Of a stretch of DNA of 32,000 nucleotides, positions 6,300 through 32,000 are shown in pieces. This stretch comes from Candidatus Scalindua sp. (lineage in GTDB: Bacteria > Planctomycetota > Brocadiia > Brocadiales > Scalinduaceae): assembly GCA_031316235.1 (NCBI GenBank), contig JALDRA010000001.1, positions 1,170,001 to 1,202,000 of the forward strand. The letters run 5' to 3'. The translations under genes and the position numbers were made by a program. The notes beneath the pieces are model-generated. The model was not told where the DNA came from and searched no databases. It saw only the letters and a program-made list of their open reading frames with translations. The stretch's first letter is position 1. Every line of letters begins with the position of its first letter.

Positions 6300-7055
6300 G
6301 TGATTATGAAGCAAAAAATAAAAGATTATTTCCCTTTTGCATTTCTATTAATTCTGTTAATGAGTGGCTGTTCTCTCATAGATACCATTAAAGGAGAATT
6401 CAGTGCCTCAAAAAAGAATGATAGTGACCGCAAAAATGAAACCATCCAGCAAAATACTACGAGCACCATAAGTAGCGTTGATCTGGAAAATACTCGCAAA
6501 AGTGAAATTTTACAGGTACAGGAAAATACCAGTACCGGCAAAAGTGAAGTTATTAAAAAGAGTAGTGATGAAGTAATATTGGTACCCGCCAAACTTAAGG
6601 ATGAACAAGATGCAGCTATCAGGCAGGAGAGACAATTACCTGTTTATGGCTATGTTGAAAATGTACTCCTTGGCCCAGGCAAGTTACAACTTAAGGCAAA
6701 GCTTGATTCCGGGGCAAAGACCTCTTCGTTGAATGTGTTGGATCTGGTAGAATTTGAACGTGATGGAAGTCAATGGGTCAGATTTAAAATGATTGATCCC
6801 TCAGTTAATGAGGAAGTGGAGTTTGAGAGAAAAATTGAACGCCATGTAAAAATCAAGCAATATGGTGCTGAAAGTGAAAGACGGCCTGTTATCATGATGG
6901 AGGTGCAATTGGGAACCATTCACCTCGAAAGGGCGTTTACGCTAACGAAGCGAAGCGATTTCATCTACAAGGTGTTAATAGGCCGTAATGTCCTCAACGG
7001 ATTTGTACTCATAGATACCTCCCGAACATTTACGACAAACACCGGTTTAGAGTAA
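6300..7055 (+). CDS. lipoprotein with retropepsin-like aspartic protease domain (PF05618 putative ATP-dependent zinc protease / RimB-like)
   Basis: It has a lipobox, LLMSG|C. A retropepsin D-S-G-A motif (KLDSGAKTSSLN) has its Asp codon at 6705-6707. The domain pattern VYGYVENV..LKAKLDSGA..FERDG..WVRF..IGRNVL matches. The likelier start is the ATG at 6306, with GAGG 6 nt upstream. Confidence 0.75.
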   Translation: MIMKQKIKDYFPFAFLLILLMSGCSLIDTIKGEFSASKKNDSDRKNETIQQNTTSTISSVDLENTRKSEILQVQENTSTGKSEVIKKSSDEVILVPAKLKDEQDAAIRQERQLPVYGYVENVLLGPGKLQLKAKLDSGAKTSSLNVLDLVEFERDGSQWVRFKMIDPSVNEEVEFERKIERHVKIKQYGAESERRPVIMMEVQLGTIHLERAFTLTKRSDFIYKVLIGRNVLNGFVLIDTSRTFTTNTGLE

Positions 7056-7061
7056 GAAAGA

Positions 7062-8591
7062 ATGAATTCAAAAATACAGTTTTATATTATCATTTTTTTC
7101 CTGGCCCTCATAGGATTTGGACTCACTTTTTACAAATGCATGTTCCTGGGGTTTCCTTTGTTCCCGGGGCAGCATGAGGAAGTTTGGACTGTTGAGGCGA
7201 AAGTTAAGTTTATGGCTAAAGGCGGTCCGGTAAAGGCATCCTTCCTCATACCTTCAGTTACACCGGGCTACACCATCAAGAGTGAAGATTTTGCATCAAC
7301 CAATTATGGTTTCAACAAAACAAAAGATGAATTTGGCTATCGAGCAAACTGGCATGCACGAGATGTAAAAGGAATTCAGACACTTTACTACCGGGTTCAA
7401 TTCTTCGGTTCTATCCGTTCTACCCCTGCTCCCCTTGAAGAAGAGCCAAAACTTCCCCCTCCGCCGTTTTTTGCTGAACCGTACAGAACAGCAGCTGACA
7501 CGTTGATAGAACTGACACGGAGCCATTCCGCAGACACTGCTACATTCACCGGGGAGTTGCTGAGGAGTTTGAATTCCCCTTCCCGTTCACAGAATATTAA
7601 TCTTCTTTTGAGGGAATACAATACCGATGAATCTAAAAATGAGCTCATCCTCTCACTTCTCACACGTGCAGAAATTCCTGCCCGGATTGTAAGAGGGCTC
7701 TTTCTTGAGGACGGCATCCAGAATCATCCGCTCTCCGATTTGATACAGGTATATGATGGTACTGAGTGGATATTCTATAATCCTCTTAACGGAAAAAGCG
7801 GTTTACCGGCAGATTTCTTTATCTGGCAGGAAGGGGGAAAATCGTTGTTCGATCTTATCGGGGGAGAAGATTCAAACGTCTCGTTCTCGATCAGCAGGAA
7901 TCTTCGTACCTCTCTGGAATTGGCTGCGTATAGAGCAAAGTCCAATGAGGCCAAATTTATTGATTTCTCGATATACAGCCTGCCCATTGATAAGCAGAAT
8001 TCGCTTACACTGTTACTCCTGGTTCCCATAGGCGCACTCGTGGTGGTTATCATGAACAACATTGTTGGAATTCCTACTTCCGGTACCTTTATGCCCATAT
8101 TAATAGCAATGTCTTTCAAACAGACAGAACTCCTGCCGGGCCTCTGTATGTTTTGTATCATTATTGGTGCTGGCCTGCAAATCAGGTCTTACCTGTCTCA
8201 TCTGAACCTTCTGTTCGTCCCGAGAATTTCAGCCGTAGTCATTGTAGTCATTTTGCTCATGTCATGCATGAGTGTCTTCAGTTTCAAGCTCGGAATACGG
8301 CATGGACTCGGTATCACTTTCTTCCCAATGATCATTCTCTCATGGACGATTGAAAGGATATCCATCATCTGGGAAGAACAGGGACATAAGGAGGCACTGA
8401 CTCAGGGAGCCGGCAGTTTACTGGTGGCCTGTATTGTCTTTTTGGTAATGGAGAACAGCATTGTTGAACACCTCACTTTTACTTTCCCTGAATTGATTCT
8501 GGCGAATCTGGCAACAATTTTACTAATTGGCAATTACACTGGATACCGGATCTCCGAATTACGCCGATTCAAATCGATGATCAAGGAATAA
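7062..8591 (+). CDS. inactive transglutaminase-like domain fused to a 7TM module (PF14400 + PF14402 type)
   Basis: It has an N-terminal TM helix, a roughly 300-aa extracytoplasmic domain and a C-terminal polytopic block containing GIPTSGTFMPILIAMSF. It starts 6 nt after the protease stop codon. Confidence 0.7.
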   Translation: MNSKIQFYIIIFFLALIGFGLTFYKCMFLGFPLFPGQHEEVWTVEAKVKFMAKGGPVKASFLIPSVTPGYTIKSEDFASTNYGFNKTKDEFGYRANWHARDVKGIQTLYYRVQFFGSIRSTPAPLEEEPKLPPPPFFAEPYRTAADTLIELTRSHSADTATFTGELLRSLNSPSRSQNINLLLREYNTDESKNELILSLLTRAEIPARIVRGLFLEDGIQNHPLSDLIQVYDGTEWIFYNPLNGKSGLPADFFIWQEGGKSLFDLIGGEDSNVSFSISRNLRTSLELAAYRAKSNEAKFIDFSIYSLPIDKQNSLTLLLLVPIGALVVVIMNNIVGIPTSGTFMPILIAMSFKQTELLPGLCMFCIIIGAGLQIRSYLSHLNLLFVPRISAVVIVVILLMSCMSVFSFKLGIRHGLGITFFPMIILSWTIERISIIWEEQGHKEALTQGAGSLLVACIVFLVMENSIVEHLTFTFPELILANLATILLIGNYTGYRISELRRFKSMIKE

Positions 8592-8594
8592 TAT

Positions 8595-9557
8595 ATGATA
8601 TTTGCGAGTCCTTTCAAGCTCTCAAAGTGCGGTATCCTGGGAATGAATATGCGCAACCTGGACTTCGTACTCAGGTATAATCCAAGGCATCTCTACCCTA
8701 ATGTGGACAATAAGTTAAAAACAAAGCTTCTCGCTGAAGAGGCCGGTATCCCTGTCCCAAAACTTTATGGGGTTATTCAGTTTCAACACCAAATAAAACA
8801 TTTACCAGAACTCCTGGAGAATTATGATCAGTTTGTCGTCAAGCCTTCGAAGGGGAGCGGAGGAAAGGGTATTCTTGTTATTTCAGGCAAGCAAAGAGGT
8901 ACCTTCGTAAAAACAAGCGGCTCTTTGATCTGTCAGAAAGAACTAAATCGACATGTTTCAAATATTGTGAGTGGTCTCTACAGCCTTGGAGGACAGATCG
9001 ACAGCGCCATGATTGAATATTATGTTAATTTTTATCCTCTCTTTAAGGATATCAGTTATCAGGGAGTACCCGACATCAGGGTTCTCCTTTTCCAAGGGTA
9101 TCCTGCCATGGCAATGATACGGCTTCCAACAAGGTTATCTGATGGAAAGGCAAACCTGCATCAAGGGGCTGTTGGCGTTGGGATAAATATTCAAAGCGGC
9201 AGAACCTTAGGCGGAGTATACCATAACAGACCTATTGAAAATCATCCCGATACCGGTATCTCTTTCAAAGGCATATCAATTCCAGACTGGCATGGCCTGC
9301 TTATACTTGCTGCCCGATGTTATGAGATCACAGGTCTTGGTTACATGGGAATAGATATCGTTCTGGATAATGATCATGGCCCAATGATTCTTGAACTTAA
9401 TGCAAGGCCGGGTCTGGCCATACAGGTAGCCAATAATGCGGGTCTGGTTCCCCGCTTACGAAAGATTGAGAAGATGGCATCACAGAAACTTGATATCGAA
9501 CAGCGTGTCTGTTTTGCACAGAGTAATTTTGATGGGGATCCCTTACAACACTTTTAA
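8595..9557 (+). CDS. alpha-L-glutamate ligase-related ATP-grasp protein (RimK-related, TIGR02291 type)
   Basis: GILGMNMRNLDFVLRYNPRHLYPNVDNKLKTKLLAEEAGIPVPKLYG and the ATP-grasp segments FVVKPSKGSGGKGILVI and MILELNARPGL match this family. It starts 3 nt after the upstream stop codon. Confidence 0.8.
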   Translation: MIFASPFKLSKCGILGMNMRNLDFVLRYNPRHLYPNVDNKLKTKLLAEEAGIPVPKLYGVIQFQHQIKHLPELLENYDQFVVKPSKGSGGKGILVISGKQRGTFVKTSGSLICQKELNRHVSNIVSGLYSLGGQIDSAMIEYYVNFYPLFKDISYQGVPDIRVLLFQGYPAMAMIRLPTRLSDGKANLHQGAVGVGINIQSGRTLGGVYHNRPIENHPDTGISFKGISIPDWHGLLILAARCYEITGLGYMGIDIVLDNDHGPMILELNARPGLAIQVANNAGLVPRLRKIEKMASQKLDIEQRVCFAQSNFDGDPLQHF

Positions 9558-14347: not shown

Positions 14348-15487
14348 TTATTCTTCATACTCATTTCCGCACACAATACTATCAAGGCTCAAGTCGAATT
14401 GTTTCACCTTCGATTTCCAGTAAAATTTTTCAGCAATACGGATTGCACGGTCCGGGTCCCTATCCCATAAATTATTATCCCGTATCTTTTCAGACAATTG
14501 AATGAGCCTCTCAGCCAGGCTGTCTGCACCACCTTTGTAATAAAAATCCTCATTACCCTCTTTCAATTCCAATGTTTCCGGATAGGACAACCTCTCTGGT
14601 ACAAGAGGGAATGCTCCCGCCGCAGCAGCCTCAATCACACTGATACCAAAAAATTCATGCTCTGCTGTCGAAACAAAGACATCAGATTCTAAAAGTGCAG
14701 ATTCGTAATCGAAACGATCTGTTTGATATCCCCATCGATCTATAAAACTGAAAAACTCATTTCTGGCAGAAGAAAAGACATCGGGGATATTCCTCCCGTG
14801 TTTACCCATAATACTTAACCGGAACTTGATATTACGTTTTTTTAAAATACGCAATGCCTCGAAAAAAAGCCCTGGATTCTTGTCATATTCCCATCTGGCC
14901 GCCCATACAATCCGTATGGGTCCTGCCAGGCGTTTCCTTCGCTGCGGGAATTTGTGAATTCCCGGATACTTGATTGAGGATTTGAGCCGGATAACTTCAA
15001 TGAGCTCCAGAGAGTGAAAATCTGGCATACGCTTCAGGAAAGATCTCAGTTCACTCAGGAAGACATCACGATGATAAGAAGAATTGAACCACACCTCGCT
15101 TCCCGCCAGGGCGGTTATCATATTGGTAAGAACAAAATGATAGTCAAATTCACGTTTATGTATTACAGGATACGTCAGTTGATTTTCGTGAAAATAAACA
15201 ATGGATGGAAGCCTTTTGACTGCAGGATGCACAAGGCCTCTGTATTCGGCAAGATTTAACATATCTGAACAGAAGAGGATGTCCCATTTTTCTCCTTTTT
15301 TGACTTTTTCCGCTGTCAGGCCAGCTAATGTTATTGCTGAATGACGCATACGCCATTTCCATTTTCGCGGTGGAAGATTTAAAAGAGTCCAACGGTGACG
15401 GCTTAAACCAATCCAACCCTGCAGAAAGGCCTTGTGACTGCCTCCAAAATAAGGTTCCAGTGCTAAGACGTGCAGCCCTTTACCCAT
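14348..15487 (-). CDS. DUF3524-containing group-1 glycosyltransferase (GTDC1/QTMAN homolog)
   Basis: LEPYFGGSHKAF, KWKWRMRHSA, YFHENQLTYPV, IVWAARWEYDKNP..FFEAL and STAEHEFFGISVIEAAAAG are collinear with the human GTDC1 motifs as I remember them. Confidence 0.8.
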   Translation of the reverse strand: MGKGLHVLALEPYFGGSHKAFLQGWIGLSRHRWTLLNLPPRKWKWRMRHSAITLAGLTAEKVKKGEKWDILFCSDMLNLAEYRGLVHPAVKRLPSIVYFHENQLTYPVIHKREFDYHFVLTNMITALAGSEVWFNSSYHRDVFLSELRSFLKRMPDFHSLELIEVIRLKSSIKYPGIHKFPQRRKRLAGPIRIVWAARWEYDKNPGLFFEALRILKKRNIKFRLSIMGKHGRNIPDVFSSARNEFFSFIDRWGYQTDRFDYESALLESDVFVSTAEHEFFGISVIEAAAAGAFPLVPERLSYPETLELKEGNEDFYYKGGADSLAERLIQLSEKIRDNNLWDRDPDRAIRIAEKFYWKSKVKQFDLSLDSIVCGNEYEE

Positions 15488-16481: not shown

Positions 16482-17222
16482 TTATTTGATACCGCCGTGG
16501 ACAGCTTCACGGTATTCCTTCCAGAAACACTCCCGTCTTTGAAACCCCGCTTCCGCTAAAAGTTCCATCTCTTCGGCAACTGTCATGAGTTTATCTCCAT
16601 CTCTTTTCTCTTTTGCTGTATATTCTGAAGCAATTTGATCCACGGTCTTATCTTGATTTTTCATTCGCAGTGTTCTCTCTCTGACCCCCATGTATTGCAG
16701 GTGCCTGAACAACTCCTCAAAAGCAGAAACTGCAGAACGAAATATATCACAGTTAACAAACCAACCATTTGGCTTTAATATTGAGTGAACAAATTGAAAC
16801 AATCTCAGTTTTTCCTCACGAGACAGATGGTGAAGAGCGAAGGCAGAAACTACTGCATCAATTCCGGAAAGATCTTTTTCTTTTTCGGATAATTCCTGAA
16901 AAGTAACAGGCTTGAACGTAATCTGTCCCAAATATGCCTTCAGCCTTATCTTTGCCTGATCAATCATCAACGCTGCAGCGTCAACCGCTATAATAGAAGC
17001 GCCTGGAAACATTTCAATTATTTTATTCGTCAGATAACCAGAACCAACTCCAAGGTCCAGAATGCGTACTCTATCAGATCTTTTAAAAGGTAATATCTCA
17101 CCAGCAATGAATGCCATTTTTTCCCGATGAGGATGCCACACATCCATATCCAGATCATATGATGCGATAATGTCACTGTTGTTGAAAGCGTATGCTGTCT
17201 TTTTTTCTGTTTGTCTTGCCAT
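16482..17222 (-). CDS. class I SAM-dependent methyltransferase
   Basis: It has motif I (ILDLGVGSGYLT), then IIAVDAA and a post-I/II pattern (DAVVSAFALHHL). The substrate is unknown. Confidence 0.8.
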   Translation of the reverse strand: MARQTEKKTAYAFNNSDIIASYDLDMDVWHPHREKMAFIAGEILPFKRSDRVRILDLGVGSGYLTNKIIEMFPGASIIAVDAAALMIDQAKIRLKAYLGQITFKPVTFQELSEKEKDLSGIDAVVSAFALHHLSREEKLRLFQFVHSILKPNGWFVNCDIFRSAVSAFEELFRHLQYMGVRERTLRMKNQDKTVDQIASEYTAKEKRDGDKLMTVAEEMELLAEAGFQRRECFWKEYREAVHGGIK

Positions 17223-26504: not shown

Positions 26505-26616
26505 TATACTCATCTTATAATGGTTTTCGGATAAAATCCGAGATAAAATTGAGCGAGTATACCTTCACCAGGATCTGGTTTCCGGTAAAACCGAAAACCA
26601 AATCGGTTTCAGTATA
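26505..26616 (+). repeat. MITE-like repeat family A, short form (112 bp)
   Basis: The left end is tatact-catcttataa-tggttttcgg. The reverse complement of the right end is tatact-gaaaccgatt-tggttttcgg. This copy gives the cleanest view of the terminal inverted repeats. Confidence 0.9.
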
Positions 26617-26710
26617 GAAGTTTTTGATAGAGGAGGTAGTATTGCTCCAATAGTGTGACCTGAACCGATTTCTCCAGAATAGATTTAAAATGGCAGGAAT
26701 AGATAAGATT

Positions 26711-29700
26711 TCAATCATTTTTTCTTGTTCCGGCCAGTTCAAGCTGGTGAATAGAATGTTCTTTATCCAGAGCTTCTTCTCCATGACAATGAATGCGTCT
26801 TAGATCATTTTTTATCGTAAAGGCCGTTTCGGCAGATTGAACATCATCTCTTTCGTAAAGTTTTTTACCTATATCTTCAAACATATCCCCCAAATCGTCA
26901 AGACCTCTCAGGGTGATACTCCGAGGCAAATTCAATGCTTTTAATAATTGATCACAATCGGCAACAACATCTTCGTACTTATCCAGGACTATATTACTCT
27001 TACAGATAAGGAGCCTGACAGCAAAGAGAGTCGGATCAATATCAACCGCCTTCCTCCAGAAAGAGACAGCTTCTTCAATGCATCCTCTTTTTACTTTGAC
27101 TTGACCAATCTTAAACATCGTATCCGCTGACGGTTCATTCATATTCAGGAGTTTTACATACGTCTCTTCCGCCTTATCAAGATCATTCCTTTCTCTGTAA
27201 AATTCACCCAGAAGAGTCAGGCAATCCCTGATGTCAGCAGATTCAGCGACAGCTTTGTCAATCTCGGACTCACCCCTGGCTATCTGATTGTCAGATAAAT
27301 AAAAGAATCCTCTCAGGAGGTGTATCTTCCATTTGTGCCCGATCGTATGAAATGTACAGGAGTTATATCCTTTCGGTTCTTTTGTTGCTTCATCCAACAA
27401 TGCTAAATACTTTTCTGAGACTTCCAGAAAATTGTCGTACCTTTTCAAATCAGCGTATACGAATGCAAGAATACAGAAACCATCTACGTATCTGTTATCG
27501 AGTCCAATGAGCTTCAATGCATAGAACTCTGCCTCCTGGAGCCTCCCTGATCCATAACCTGCCGCACTGATCACATAATAGGATACTAAGAAGTCTCTTA
27601 TATTCAGTTTTTTTATTTCTGTTAATTCCAGAGCCGTTTTACTCTCCCTGATAGCTTTTCCATATTCACCTTTTTCTAAATACAGGATTCCAAGATATCG
27701 GTAAGGAACCGGATTGCATGGATCCGTTCTTATCTGCTTTTGTAACAAACAATATGTCCGTACGAACTTTTTCTCCATCTCTTTTTCCGATAAATTATAT
27801 CCATAGTGGGTTATACTTATTGATGATTCTAGACATTTCCCCCTGAATGATAAAACGTTGTGAACAATTCCATCATACCGTGTACCCTGGAAATTTCTGA
27901 AGAGGCGGATGGAGTTTGTGTATGATTCATTATGAGAGTTCCTTGACCTGCTTTTGACAACAAAGGATATGGCTGAATACCCGTTACCCTTTATTAATTC
28001 CTTGATCCTTGAAATATCAGATTTGTTTAACTCCTCATCTGCGTCCATTATGAGTATCCATTTGGAAGTTGCGTACTGCAGGGAATAGTTCCTTGCCTTG
28101 CTGAAACTGTTTTCCCATGCATGGTAATAGACATCGGCACCATATCTCTGTGCAATCTCCACTGTCCTGTCTCTTGAACCGGTATCAACAATTATCATCT
28201 CATCAACCAGTGAGTTAACACTGTCAAGACACCTCGCAAGATTGCCTTCCTCATCCTTTACGATCATGCAGAGAGAAACAGTAGATCTACGGCCGGAGAT
28301 TTCTCCTGCCTGAAGTCTGGTCCGAGCCTCCGGAGTTGTTTCAATTGGTGAAATCGTACCTGAATCCTGCATTAACCGTCTCTTTTGATCGGTGATGAAA
28401 CCTCCTGAAGATTTTCTGGTAACAAGCTTTTTTGCGTTAAAATCCGGCATCTTCTCTGCTAATGCTTCTCCCACTCGATTAAAAACTCCAGCCCAATCAC
28501 CTGGATGAGTCTGACGAAATAGACGCATACTCGGATACCATGGACTGTCCTCACGATTCATTAACCAGCGCCAGTCTGGCACGAACGGCAGGAGTATCCA
28601 TACCGGTTTGCCAAGAGCGCCGGCAAGATGTGCTACTGCGGTATCGACAGAAATAACGAGATCAAGATTAGCAATTACCGCTGCCGTGTCTGAAAAGTCA
28701 TCCAGCTTATCTTCCAGATTGATGATGTCCATACCCTCAGGCGGAGAGAGCACTTCAACTGAAGCCGGGCCCTTTTGCAGAGAGTAGAATTTCAATCCCG
28801 GAATCTCAGACAGGTCAGCAAAAGCACGTAAAGTGCACGATTTCTTAAGACAGATAGTGCGGTTCTCCGGATTCCCTGACCAAACAATACCAATTCTGAA
28901 GCAGTCATTACCGGCAAGGAGTTTCTGCCATTCATCAGCAAGTCTGAGATCTGCCACAATATAGGGGACAGGAGATGGTATCGTTTCAAGTTTTGTATCA
29001 AATATTCCAGGCAGGCTCATAAGAGGAATATGGAAATCAAATTCCTGAGCCGGATATCCGGAAGTGGACATTTCAACGATTTCATCGATTCCGTTACCGT
29101 TTTCTAAAAGCTTAAGGAGCTGAGGCCAGCACTCAAAGATTACACGGCCACCTTTTGACTGGACCAGGGGCAGATAACGGGCAAATTGTATCGTGTCACC
29201 AAAGCCCTGCTCAGCGTGTACGAGGATACTCTCACCATTGAGAGGAGAACCTTTCCATTCAGGCTGTTGCAGTGTTTTTAACGCATACTCCTTTGTGCAC
29301 AATCTCTTCTCATATTCTGGCCAGGCTTCAGTAAAACGCCCTTTCAACAGCAACAACATGGACCTGTTAAATTGAGCTTCTCCATAATCCGTTTTTGATG
29401 CGATTGCCTTGTCAAAGGCAAGAAGTGCTTCGTTTAATCTTCCCTGTTCCTGGAGAACTATTCCGCAGTTATTATGAGCTTCTGCATTATCGGGGCTGAG
29501 GCTTATCGCACGGGAAAGAGCACACAGAGATTCATCGTACCGTCCTTGATCCTTGAGAGTTACTCCCAGATTATTATGTGCCTCTATATAGTCTGGGTTG
29601 AAAGTAATCGCTTTCCTGTAATGTCTTACTGCTTCATCCAGCCTGCACTCCCGTTTCAATGCATTGGCGAGATTATAGTGTGCATCAGCATAATCAGGTT

Positions 29701-30106
29701 TCAGTACAATCGCGTATTTATAATTTGCAATGGCCTCATCAGACCTGCCCATCTCTATTAATACAGCCCCAAGATTGTTGTAGATCTCTGCATGGTCAGA
29801 CTTCAGCTTCATCGCATTTCCATAACTTGCAGCGGCCTCTTCAAATTTCCCCTGTTTCTGTAAAATAACTCCCAGAATATTATATGTTTCAGCATCTTCA
29901 GGTTTGAGCATAATCGCCTCCTTAACCAGTTCTGATGCCCTCTCAAGATCCCCCTTCTGCAGACTCAGGGTACTTAAGAGAATTAATGCGGCTGTCTGTC
30001 CCGGTTCTATATCCAGGAGATTTCGGTATGATGTTTCTGCTGCAGCAAGGTTACCATCCTTATGATATTTGAGGGCTTTGTGAAATAAATCCTCGGAATT
30101 TTCCAT
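26711..30106 (-). CDS. multidomain protein: TPR - GT9-like (heptosyltransferase-fold) - GT2 - TPR
   Basis: aa 1-265 are TPR repeats. aa ~290-555 are GT9-like (HAEQGFGDTIQFARYLP; ISVDTAVAHLAGALGKPVWILLP). aa 609-800 are GT2 (SLCMIVKDEEGNLARCLDSV..IIVDTGSRDRTVEIA..MDADEE). aa 800-1131 are TPR-like. Confidence 0.85.
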   Translation of the reverse strand: MENSEDLFHKALKYHKDGNLAAAETSYRNLLDIEPGQTAALILLSTLSLQKGDLERASELVKEAIMLKPEDAETYNILGVILQKQGKFEEAAASYGNAMKLKSDHAEIYNNLGAVLIEMGRSDEAIANYKYAIVLKPDYADAHYNLANALKRECRLDEAVRHYRKAITFNPDYIEAHNNLGVTLKDQGRYDESLCALSRAISLSPDNAEAHNNCGIVLQEQGRLNEALLAFDKAIASKTDYGEAQFNRSMLLLLKGRFTEAWPEYEKRLCTKEYALKTLQQPEWKGSPLNGESILVHAEQGFGDTIQFARYLPLVQSKGGRVIFECWPQLLKLLENGNGIDEIVEMSTSGYPAQEFDFHIPLMSLPGIFDTKLETIPSPVPYIVADLRLADEWQKLLAGNDCFRIGIVWSGNPENRTICLKKSCTLRAFADLSEIPGLKFYSLQKGPASVEVLSPPEGMDIINLEDKLDDFSDTAAVIANLDLVISVDTAVAHLAGALGKPVWILLPFVPDWRWLMNREDSPWYPSMRLFRQTHPGDWAGVFNRVGEALAEKMPDFNAKKLVTRKSSGGFITDQKRRLMQDSGTISPIETTPEARTRLQAGEISGRRSTVSLCMIVKDEEGNLARCLDSVNSLVDEMIIVDTGSRDRTVEIAQRYGADVYYHAWENSFSKARNYSLQYATSKWILIMDADEELNKSDISRIKELIKGNGYSAISFVVKSRSRNSHNESYTNSIRLFRNFQGTRYDGIVHNVLSFRGKCLESSISITHYGYNLSEKEMEKKFVRTYCLLQKQIRTDPCNPVPYRYLGILYLEKGEYGKAIRESKTALELTEIKKLNIRDFLVSYYVISAAGYGSGRLQEAEFYALKLIGLDNRYVDGFCILAFVYADLKRYDNFLEVSEKYLALLDEATKEPKGYNSCTFHTIGHKWKIHLLRGFFYLSDNQIARGESEIDKAVAESADIRDCLTLLGEFYRERNDLDKAEETYVKLLNMNEPSADTMFKIGQVKVKRGCIEEAVSFWRKAVDIDPTLFAVRLLICKSNIVLDKYEDVVADCDQLLKALNLPRSITLRGLDDLGDMFEDIGKKLYERDDVQSAETAFTIKNDLRRIHCHGEEALDKEHSIHQLELAGTRKND

Positions 30107-30146
30107 AGATCATGAAATGCAGATAAATTCTAAAATCATACAAATT

Positions 30147-30164
30147 TATACTCATCTTATAATG
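30147..30164 (+). repeat. family A repeat, left-terminus fragment
   Basis: Only tatactcatcttataatg is present, in the 82-nt gap between the two TPR-GT genes. Confidence 0.4.
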
Positions 30165-30188
30165 AACAGAGATTTAAAATGGTAATTC

Positions 30189-32000
30189 CTACAGAATCAT
30201 ATCGGCTTCAGTCTCTTTCCCGGAAGTCTTTAACCTGAAATCTTCCACCTCTTTTGTGAGAGCATCCTTCACGCGTTCTATCACTCCTTCCCATCCATCC
30301 CGATGTGTCTGCCGAAACAAGCGCATACCAGGGTACCACTGACTCTCTTCACGTTTCAACATCCAGCGCCAATCAGGTGAAAATGGCAGTAATGTCCATA
30401 CCGGTTTGCCGAGGGCACCAGCCAGATGTGCAACTGCGGTATCTACCGAAATCACAAGATCAAGATTTTCAATAACGGCTGCGGTATCTGCAAAGTCATG
30501 CAACTCTTTTTCCAGATTATGGATTGTCATATTTTCCGGTGGATGCAATGCTTCAGCAGCAGCTCTACCTTTTTGAAGTGAATAGAAGGTCAATTCTGAA
30601 ATCTCAGCTAACGGGGAAAAATCATTCAGCGTACAAGAACGATTGGAATAGACATAATTACGGGATGGACCGCCTGCCCAGACAATCCCAGTTTTAAAAG
30701 AATTTTTATTGCTGCATATATTACCCCATTCAGCTGAAAGTCCGGGATCAACCTGAATATACGGCCCCCTTGAAGGTATAGTATCCAGTGTTGTTCCAAA
30801 GATCCCCGGTAAGCTGAGGAGAGGCACTTGAAAATCGAACATTTCTGACAGCTCACCGGAAGAGTTCCGTGCTAAAATTTTATCAATACCTTCACAGCGC
30901 CTTAAGAGAGATACCAGAGCCGGCTGGCATTCAAAAACCACATATCCACCTCGCGACTGAATCATTGGAAGATACCGTACAAATTGAATTGTATCACCGA
31001 AACCCTGTTCTGAATGCACAAGTACAGTCCTCTTGTTGAGCAAGGAACCGTTCCATCGTGGCTTCGGAAAGTTTCTGGAATTGTAACGTTCAGTCCGTAA
31101 TCGCCATTCATACTCCGGCCACCCCTCTTGATAGTTTCCCGACAAGAGCAACGCAATTGATTTATTCAGATGTGCCATGGCAAAGTCTGGCTTGAGAGCG
31201 ATTGCACGGTTACTGCTCGCAACGGCCTCTGCAAGTTTTCCCTGCTCCTGCAGTGCAGCACCAAGATTGCTGTATGCCTCCGCATAGTCCGGTTTCAGGT
31301 TCAGTGCTTTCTGGTAATTCCCGATTGCCTCTTCCAGCCTCCCCTGTTCCTGCAGTGCAGTACCCAGATTACCGTAAACAACTGCATTATCAGGTTCGAT
31401 TCCCACAGCCCTCACATAGTGAGCTACGGCTTCATCATACCTGCCCTGCCTCTTAAATGCATTCGCCAGATTATTATATGCTGCTACATAGTCTGATCTC
31501 AACGCCAATGCTTTCTGGTAATTCCCGATTGCCTCTTCCAGTCTGCCCTGTTCCTGCAGTGCGTCACCAAGATTACAAAAGGCTTCAGCATAGCCAGGCT
31601 CCCGTATGACAGCCTGTCTATAGTTTTTGATTGCCTCATCAAGCCGGTGCTGAGCCTTCAGCACATTTCCAAGATTATTGTACATTTTCCCATGGTCTGG
31701 TTTGATTTCAAGAACTCTTCTATAGATGTCTATTGCCTCATCTAATCTCCCCAATTCCTGAAGTATTGCGCCAAGATTACCACAGATTCCAACATTATCA
31801 GGATCAAGGGTCATTGCCACCTGATAGCTTCTCACTGCTTCATCCAGCATGTTTTCCTCTCTCAACACATTTGCAAGATTGGTATGTATTTCGGCATCAT
31901 GGGGACTGAGCAGCAATGCCTTCCGGTAATTCTTTATCGCCTCGCCAGATTTGCCCATTTTTTTGAGTGTATTGGCAAGGTTGTAATACCCTTCAGCATA
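30189..32000 (-). CDS. TPR - GT9-like glycosyltransferase; N-terminus beyond window edge
   Basis: It is a paralog of the first 555 aa of the neighbouring gene (HSEQGFGDTIQFVRYLP; ISVDTAVAHLAGALGKPVWTLLP). The frame stays open upstream of the track Met at 31958 (..YAEGYYNLANTLKKMGKSGEA is still TPR), so the gene continues past position 32000. Confidence 0.85.
   Translation of the reverse strand, partial: YAEGYYNLANTLKKMGKSGEAIKNYRKALLLSPHDAEIHTNLANVLREENMLDEAVRSYQVAMTLDPDNVGICGNLGAILQELGRLDEAIDIYRRVLEIKPDHGKMYNNLGNVLKAQHRLDEAIKNYRQAVIREPGYAEAFCNLGDALQEQGRLEEAIGNYQKALALRSDYVAAYNNLANAFKRQGRYDEAVAHYVRAVGIEPDNAVVYGNLGTALQEQGRLEEAIGNYQKALNLKPDYAEAYSNLGAALQEQGKLAEAVASSNRAIALKPDFAMAHLNKSIALLLSGNYQEGWPEYEWRLRTERYNSRNFPKPRWNGSLLNKRTVLVHSEQGFGDTIQFVRYLPMIQSRGGYVVFECQPALVSLLRRCEGIDKILARNSSGELSEMFDFQVPLLSLPGIFGTTLDTIPSRGPYIQVDPGLSAEWGNICSNKNSFKTGIVWAGGPSRNYVYSNRSCTLNDFSPLAEISELTFYSLQKGRAAAEALHPPENMTIHNLEKELHDFADTAAVIENLDLVISVDTAVAHLAGALGKPVWTLLPFSPDWRWMLKREESQWYPGMRLFRQTHRDGWEGVIERVKDALTKEVEDFRLKTSGKETEADMIL

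Follow-up and report, generated by a model that had tools for sequence, protein, structure and literature searches.

In Caulobacter crescentus and Brevundimonas, flagellin is O-glycosylated by the transferase FlmG (PMC7591256; bioRxiv 10.1101/2022.03.25.485807). In this protein of 596 residues, a tetratricopeptide repeat (TPR) domain (residues 1–313) binds the flagellins and a GT-B domain (residues 309–596) transfers pseudaminic acid (PMC7591256). Flagellin glycosyltransferases of this type have been described as confined to the Caulobacterales. GmaR of Listeria monocytogenes transfers N-acetylglucosamine to flagellin and is also the anti-repressor of MogR (PMC9638930). For the planctomycete Candidatus Scalindua sediminis a full set of flagellar genes has been reported (PMC7768721). 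This report concerns a gene beside fliC in another Candidatus Scalindua sp., also an anammox planctomycete (assembly GCA_031316235.1, contig JALDRA010000001.1, positions 1,170,001–1,202,000). The window is this whole stretch of 32,000 nucleotides, and all coordinates refer to it unless another locus is named. On its minus strand, positions 26711–30106 form a single uninterrupted open reading frame (ORF) of 1131 codons, in which a FlmG-like module is followed by a GmaR-like one. The fused protein is probably a bifunctional cytoplasmic flagellin O-glycosyltransferase within a flagellin-modification island. We infer flagellin as the acceptor, the TPRs as the binding element and activity of both catalytic domains. 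The fused gene is divided as follows (evidence in brackets).

26711–30106, minus strand: fused gene, 1131 residues (Pfam, AlphaFold)
29297–30106, minus strand: residues 1–270, N-terminal TPR array of 16 helices, presumed flagellin-binding adaptor (Pfam, AlphaFold, alignment to FlmG)
28424–29296, minus strand: residues 271–561, predicted FlmG-like GT-B domain whose fold resembles GT9, with the motifs EQGFGD304TIQF and SVD488TAVAH493LAG (AlphaFold, Foldseek, hhalign)
28289–28423, minus strand: residues 562–606, linker between the domains, predicted to be disordered, with many S, T, R and G residues (predicted local distance difference test, pLDDT, below 50)
27791–28288, minus strand: residues 607–772, GT2 (GT-A) catalytic domain, GmaR/SunS-like, motifs VD641TGS and D688AD690EE (PF00535, PDB search)
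26711–27790, minus strand: residues 773–1131, C-terminal helical/TPR-like array of 18 helices, and stop codon (AlphaFold, Pfam, Foldseek)

The N-terminal module

The sequence of FlmG was obtained via fragments of published primers (NK-76/77) and a wobble-tolerant pattern for WSGQDLRGK, which led to Caulobacter vibrioides OR37 (L012). There, FlmG is an ORF of 598 residues that adjoins two flagellin genes and a cytidylyltransferase gene; a small ORF next to flmG is taken here to encode an acetyltransferase. Residues 74–545 of the fused protein align with residues 94–587 of OR37 FlmG (about 25% identity, E = 6e-44, BLASTP), and the alignment is colinear over the TPR and glycosyltransferase domains. 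Furthermore, a profile of the GT9-like domain aligns with residues 278–597 of FlmG (hhalign 99.9%, E = 2.9e-32). By both alignments the N-terminal module is judged a true homolog of FlmG over its two domains, a closer relation than the analogy to FlmG drawn in the original prediction.

In a contig labelled as a Bradyrhizobium sp. metagenome-assembled genome (DATLXF010000058.1, L018), an flmG region, flagellin genes included, encodes a product with 100% identity to FlmG of C. vibrioides OR37. This contig is probably mis-binned.

The N-terminal array matches TPR families of Pfam with E-values down to 3e-57, and its helices span residues 4–270 of the full-length AlphaFold model with pLDDT above 90. 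For the GT9-like domain, a search of the PDB sequences gave nothing at E ≤ 1, and its fold was therefore obtained by AlphaFold and Foldseek. The model of residues 255–565 (AF2, 34 diverse homologs) has a pLDDT of 92 and a predicted template modelling score (pTM) of 0.92. The top Foldseek matches of the isolated domain are all GT9 structures (3tov, 2.9e-10; WaaF, 1psw, 3.9e-9; WaaC, ~1e-7), with template modelling (TM) scores of 0.55–0.62 normalised to the query. The protein O-heptosyltransferase TibC follows further down the list (~1e-4). The domain, which the original prediction had called heptosyltransferase-like, is thereby assigned to a glycosyltransferase fold; by its model it is closest to GT9. 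PF13844, the catalytic domain of GT41, is absent from the Pfam matches of the window proteins and from those listed for P0001, a database protein identical to the fused one. This absence and the GT9 match of the isolated domain rule out a GT41 identity.

In sequence, the likeness to GT9 is short. The PF01075 match is confined to residues 470–502 (27.6 bits) and no full-length GT9 match was found (TIGR02193, 24 bits against a cut-off of 185). The hhalign alignment of the domain to WaaC covers 34 columns only and places LVISVDTAVAHLAGALGKP on FVVSVDTGLSHLTAALDRP of WaaC; therefore D488 corresponds to D261 of WaaC. The motif EQGFGD304 after strand 1 is probably equivalent to GD13 of WaaC. Residues D13 and D261 of WaaC are presumably catalytic or donor-binding.

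The C-terminal module

The GT2 domain matches PF00535 with an E-value of 1.9e-24 (Pfam). In the PDB sequence search it aligns with the catalytic domain of GmaR (22ao, E = 9.8e-29), colinear over the whole domain, and with SunS (E = 3.2e-22). The helical array behind it comprises residues 774–1125 of the AlphaFold model and contains few canonical TPRs; Pfam places TPR_7/TPR_6 at residues 961–990. Foldseek superposes the C-terminal half on SunS and ThuS with target-normalised TM scores of 0.58–0.71. The SunS equivalog TIGR04195 is the best NCBIfam match, at 87.3 bits against a cut-off of 350, and orthology to the S-glycosyltransferases is not indicated. Taken together, the matches mark the C-terminal module as a homolog of both GmaR and SunS.

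Architecture and conservation of the fusion

The full-length AlphaFold model has a mean pLDDT of 87.6, with low confidence only at residues 562–606 and in the last 22 residues. Since the model is confident save in the linker and the C-terminal tail, the 1131-residue protein is predicted to be two folded modules on a flexible tether. Foldseek matches the full-length model to SPY and OGT (TPR and GT-B) and, via the C-terminal half, to SunS and ThuS. Pfam, AlphaFold and Foldseek thus agree with the earlier proposal that one polypeptide combines a GT-B and a GT-A fold with two repeat arrays. In an alignment of five orthologs, residues D304, D488, T489, H493, D641, D688 and D690 are invariant. This invariance of the catalytic residues argues that both sites are active.

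The linker had been placed at nucleotides 28283–28441 and described as about 50 residues rich in S, T, R and Q. Its existence stands; its start is corrected to nucleotide 28280 (residues 556–609, nucleotides 28280–28441) and its composition to T, R, S and G. Residues 562–606 (~45 residues) within it have a pLDDT below 50. The linker contains neither a stop codon nor a frameshift in the window sequence, and the fusion is kept in four other genomes. Orthologs in these further Scalindua genomes (P0002–P0005) are 1089–1230 residues long and share 69–51% identity with the window protein at 97–99% coverage. From the last helix of the GT-B domain to the start of the GT2 domain (SLCMIVKDEE), the five orthologs have ~55, 55, 28, 30 and 3 residues, respectively, and the frame is open throughout. 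Additionally, an identical 1131-residue protein was independently assembled in a Logan contig (4.7 kb, inside the span of the window). Its retention in five genomes, with linkers that differ in length, shows that the fusion is genuine.

The flagellar locus

The other features of the locus are the following.

30189–32000, minus strand: stand-alone TPR and putative FlmG-like (GT9-like GT-B) glycosyltransferase, partial, 603 residues (Pfam TPRs, partial PF01075)
26231–26257, minus strand: sigma-28 (FliA)-type promoter-like site upstream of fliC (pattern match)
24923–26041, minus strand: fliC, flagellin, 372 residues, presumed acceptor (Pfam Flagellin_N/C)
24376–24633, minus strand: ORF of 85 residues between fliC and fliD (conservation in related loci)
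20936–24037, minus strand: fliD, filament cap, 1033 residues (Pfam FliD_N/FliD_C)
20417–20842, minus strand: fliS (Pfam FliS, E = 2.4e-29)
19785–20243, minus strand: flgN-like chaperone gene (Pfam FlgN, E = 1.3e-7)
17653–19578, plus strand: stand-alone GT2-TPR protein, 641 residues, clade A of the module tree described below, GmaR-like (PF00535 and TPR, tree, synteny)

The partial ORF 30189–32000 crosses the edge of the window. Its TPR-encoding frame extends upstream of the listed ATG at 31958, and the ortholog L002_723 (75% identity) implies that ~104 residues are missing at the N-terminus.

Six related loci (L002–L007) were compared with the window; L006 belongs to Candidatus Scalindua sediminis and L007 to another Scalinduaceae genome. 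In L002–L005 the order is GT4, a GT4-like/TPR protein of ~530 residues, TPR-GT9-like (~630 residues), fused gene, GT2-TPR (600–650 residues), fliC, small ORF, fliD, fliS and flgN. L002 has one extra TPR-GT9-like gene (723 residues) and lacks the ~530-residue protein. The contig of L005 stops just past the fused gene, with the flagellar genes beyond its end. In L006 and L007 the same slot holds a GT2-TPR-GT2-TPR protein of 1060 residues, preceded in L007 by a TPR-GT41 gene. Thus, the glycosyltransferase slot upstream of fliC is kept in seven Scalinduaceae loci though its module content varies (L005 ends before fliC). In L002–L004 the fused gene and fliC flank the stand-alone GT2-TPR gene; in the window the latter lies beyond flgN on the opposite strand. 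The 670-bp gap of the window (26041–26711) holds no remnant of it. The gene of the window has been relocated and inverted by a local rearrangement.

The promoter-like site has the form TAAAGTCA-N11-GACGATAA and precedes the start of fliC by ~190 nt. No other match occurs in the window, where 0.02 would be expected by chance. A terminator-like hairpin follows the fused gene (26413–26437, minus strand). Based on these two elements, fliC and the glycosyltransferase genes probably belong to separate transcripts.

Ser and Thr make up 30.6% of the central region of FliC, compared to 11.6% of the other window proteins. With 1033 residues (1029–1150 in relatives), FliD is unusually long; it contains 27.6% Ser and Thr and could be a second substrate of glycosylation. 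The 85-residue ORF recurs at this place in five related loci, with 90% identity in L002 and 50–60% in L003, L004, L006 and L007; L003 and L004 carry a paralog of it between fliD and fliS. Pfam gave no match for the ORF, which may encode a small, undescribed protein of the flagellar locus.

Further enzymes with TPRs are found in the related islands: a TPR-sulfotransferase in L002 (15428–17098, PF13469, E = 5e-49), an OGT-like TPR-GT41 enzyme of 840 residues in L007 (7303–9825, PF13844, E = 5.5e-105) and, in L003 (6301–7902), the weakly GT4-like protein of ~530 residues, whose TPR is C-terminal. The island resembles a tool kit in which every enzyme brings its own TPR adaptor. Flagellin glycans might be sulfated.

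Beyond the GT2-TPR gene the window holds unrelated genes (methyltransferase, QTMAN_N/GT4 gene, recD2 and others, by Pfam). Two of them were considered as members of the island, the methyltransferase (16482–17222, minus strand) and a GT4 enzyme with N-terminal QTMAN_N, tRNA-queuosine mannosyltransferase-like (14348–15487, minus strand). Neither has homologs in the six related loci, and both probably lie outside the conserved island. A three-gene cassette at 6300–9557 (plus strand), unrelated to the flagellar island, comprises genes for a Zn_protease (PF05618), for a transglutaminase that is inactive and joined to 7TM helices (PF14400/PF14402) and for an ATP-grasp protein described as "sugar-transfer associated" (PF14397).

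Paralogy of the two halves

Residues 20–559 of the fused protein align with the product of the partial gene over 540 residues with 50% identity and zero gaps (E = 0.0, BLASTP); the motifs GFGDTIQF.RYLP and ISVDTAVAHLAGALGKPVW are common to both. Residues 599–1014 align with residues 15–437 of the 641-residue GT2-TPR protein (40% identity, E = 4e-90), and the C-terminal LLKALNLPRSITL block aligns too (residues 933–1098 with 458–623). Both halves are hence collinear with their stand-alone counterparts as first proposed, the C-terminal half through to its C-terminal region.

The description of the C-terminal half as part of a "GT2-TPR gene copy", on the other hand, overstates how recent the relation is. 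In a tree of the GT2-TPR modules two clades are separated. Clade A contains the stand-alone genes, including that of the window, which is 50.6% identical to L002_GT2_648 over its full length, and the N-terminal halves of the double GT2 proteins. Clade B contains the C-terminal halves of the fused and double proteins. In the seven genomes, clade-B modules occur solely as C-terminal halves of two-module proteins and never stand alone; they are preceded by a FlmG-like module in five of the genomes and by a clade-A GT2 module in the other two. A recent duplication as the source of the C-terminal half is ruled out by this tree, in which the fused C-terminal half and the stand-alone gene appear as old paralogs.

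Relatives of the fused protein

A query spanning the junction was searched exhaustively against 1.84 billion representatives. It has 69,264 relatives, among them proteins of up to 3140 residues with five or six matched stretches. For a domain census 254 proteins were retrieved, and the best 150 matches were listed. Concatenations of the same type dominate the 254 proteins: three GT9-like modules are present in 144, two in 45 and four in 22; 18 contain two GT2 modules. The mixed architecture of GT9-like and GT2 modules was found only in five Scalindua proteins among the 254; mixed fusions with weaker matches may rank beneath the 150 that were listed.

Giant polypeptides among these proteins (P0121–P0254) have four to six matched stretches and, by the census, carry up to six TPR and GT9-like (FlmG-like) modules each. 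Proteins of Geomonas and Geobacter typically have three such modules.

A wider reading is offered tentatively. FlmG may be a small branch of a very large cross-phylum superfamily of TPR and GT9-like protein glycosyltransferases, which are routinely joined into polypeptides of two to six modules, and the Scalindua fusion may be a bifunctional enzyme that binds flagellin a single time and attaches two different sugars to it, which would hard-wire a two-step glycosylation into one protein.

Proposed function and alternatives

The enzymes of these islands each carry their own TPR adaptor, and the fused protein would amount to two complete protein-glycosyltransferase modules: a FlmG-type TPR array with a GT-B domain (~290 residues), then a GmaR/SunS-type GT2 domain with its helical/TPR array, joined by a ~45-residue tether. 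In the cytoplasm, before flagellar type III export, the TPR arrays would capture flagellin that is unfolded or free of chaperone. From two different nucleotide-activated donors, the catalytic domains would then each add a sugar to Ser/Thr in the central part of FliC, which is exposed at the surface, either at different sites or with the second sugar placed onto the first. The stand-alone FlmG-like and GT2-TPR genes may add further transfers. Homology to FlmG and GmaR, together with synteny, lends good support to the glycosylation of flagellin put forward in the original prediction. The sequential order of the transfers proposed with it is one of two options: because FlmG and GmaR both glycosylate Ser/Thr of flagellin directly, two independent modifications are as possible as a sequential transfer.

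Several points weigh against a flagellin glycosyltransferase with two activities. Elsewhere, no flagellin gene lies within 8–10 kb of most sampled members of the TPR-GT9-like superfamily, and some members are annotated as cyanobacterial (P0021, P0091). Since the superfamily is huge and mostly not encoded beside flagellin genes, family membership alone cannot fix the substrate. Nucleotide-sugar or nonulosonate genes, including NeuB/PseI and CMP-synthetase, were found neither in the window nor within 10 kb in L002–L007. No paper on glycosylated flagellin in any anammox bacterium was found. All Scalindua paralogs keep the GT9-type motif S(V/T)DT..(A/V/T)H where FlmG has GFSNATIN (SVDTAVAHLAG in the GT9-like domain compared to GFSNATINLAG); therefore the donor sugar probably differs from that of FlmG. 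Finally, the full-length model has a pTM of 0.54, which leaves the relative arrangement of the modules undefined. The wide distribution apart from flagellin genes, the cyanobacterial members and the lack of linked sugar-pathway genes would also suit TPR-glycosyltransferases that act on another cytoplasmic or surface protein or on a polysaccharide precursor, with the adjacency to fliC being merely a conserved neighbourhood. Such a substrate is unlikely, as the slot upstream of fliC persists in seven Scalinduaceae genomes despite module changes and both characterised homologs, FlmG and GmaR, are flagellin glycosyltransferases.

It is also quite improbable that only one transferase of the fusion is active and the other module serves as a scaffold or regulator. 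GmaR offers a precedent, being bifunctional with a regulatory C-terminal helical part (PMC9638930), and the scarcity of canonical TPRs in the C-terminal array would fit such a role. Against it, the motifs of both domains are invariant across orthologs that are only 51% identical overall, and the antirepressor region of GmaR has no sequence match here, a search for a MogR-like repressor not having been made. The source of the window is a metagenome-assembled genome and neighbouring glycosyltransferase genes on the same strand are the norm in the island, so that the single ORF might be imagined as an assembly or sequencing artefact or as a recent lesion merging two adjacent genes. This explanation is effectively refuted: the identical protein in the independent Logan assembly, the four further genomes with linkers of ~3 to 55 residues, the open frame and a clade-B module that never occurs alone leave it a negligible probability. 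Most likely, the fused protein is a bifunctional flagellin O-glycosyltransferase.

If this is true, the flagella of Scalindua are predicted to be heavily glycosylated. A clear homolog of FlmG in a planctomycete flagellin locus extends the reach of this type beyond the Caulobacterales. A conserved fusion of GT-B and GT-A domains, each with a TPR array, bears on substrate selection and on the coordination of successive transfers in cytoplasmic O-glycosylation. With two activities and one substrate adaptor system per protein, it is a possible scaffold for glyco-engineering.

Comparison with known systems

FlmG and the N-terminal module have the same order of an N-terminal TPR array and a GT-B domain of ~290 residues, share the motifs W-x-G-x-x-L-x-G-K, EQG-x-GD and PWYP, and are encoded beside flagellin genes. 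Unlike FlmG, which was described from the Caulobacterales, the module of the planctomycete is present in tandem copies, one of them fused to a GT2 module. The flmG gene of OR37 adjoins a cytidylyltransferase gene, whereas the Scalindua islands (window and L002–L007) have no linked genes for pseudaminic or legionaminic acid.

The closest solved folds to the GT-B domain are those of the GT9 enzymes WaaC, WaaF and TibC, and its SVDT..H motif aligns with D261-T262 of WaaC. In contrast to the GT9 heptosyltransferases, its sequence likeness is limited to ~35 residues, it carries a TPR array and its acceptor is presumed to be a protein. OGT and SPINDLY (GT41) share the logic of the fused protein, in which a TPR superhelix feeds GT-B catalysis. 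For the full-length model they lead the Foldseek matches, whereas the isolated catalytic domain matches GT9 instead.

GmaR resembles the C-terminal module in having an N-terminal GT2 domain of ~190 residues followed by TPR/helical repeats. Its linker/antirepressor part has no detectable match in the module (only the GT-domain entry 22ao matched at E ≤ 0.01; MogR was not searched for), and the Scalindua module, unlike GmaR, sits fused behind a FlmG-like one. The peptide S-glycosyltransferases SunS and ThuS (PDB entries 7msn, 7msp and 7msk) likewise combine a GT-A with a helical domain; the Scalindua locus, by contrast, lacks a glycocin gene context. The mixed GT-B and GT-A fusion is a lineage-specific new combination of known parts and not a new kind of system.

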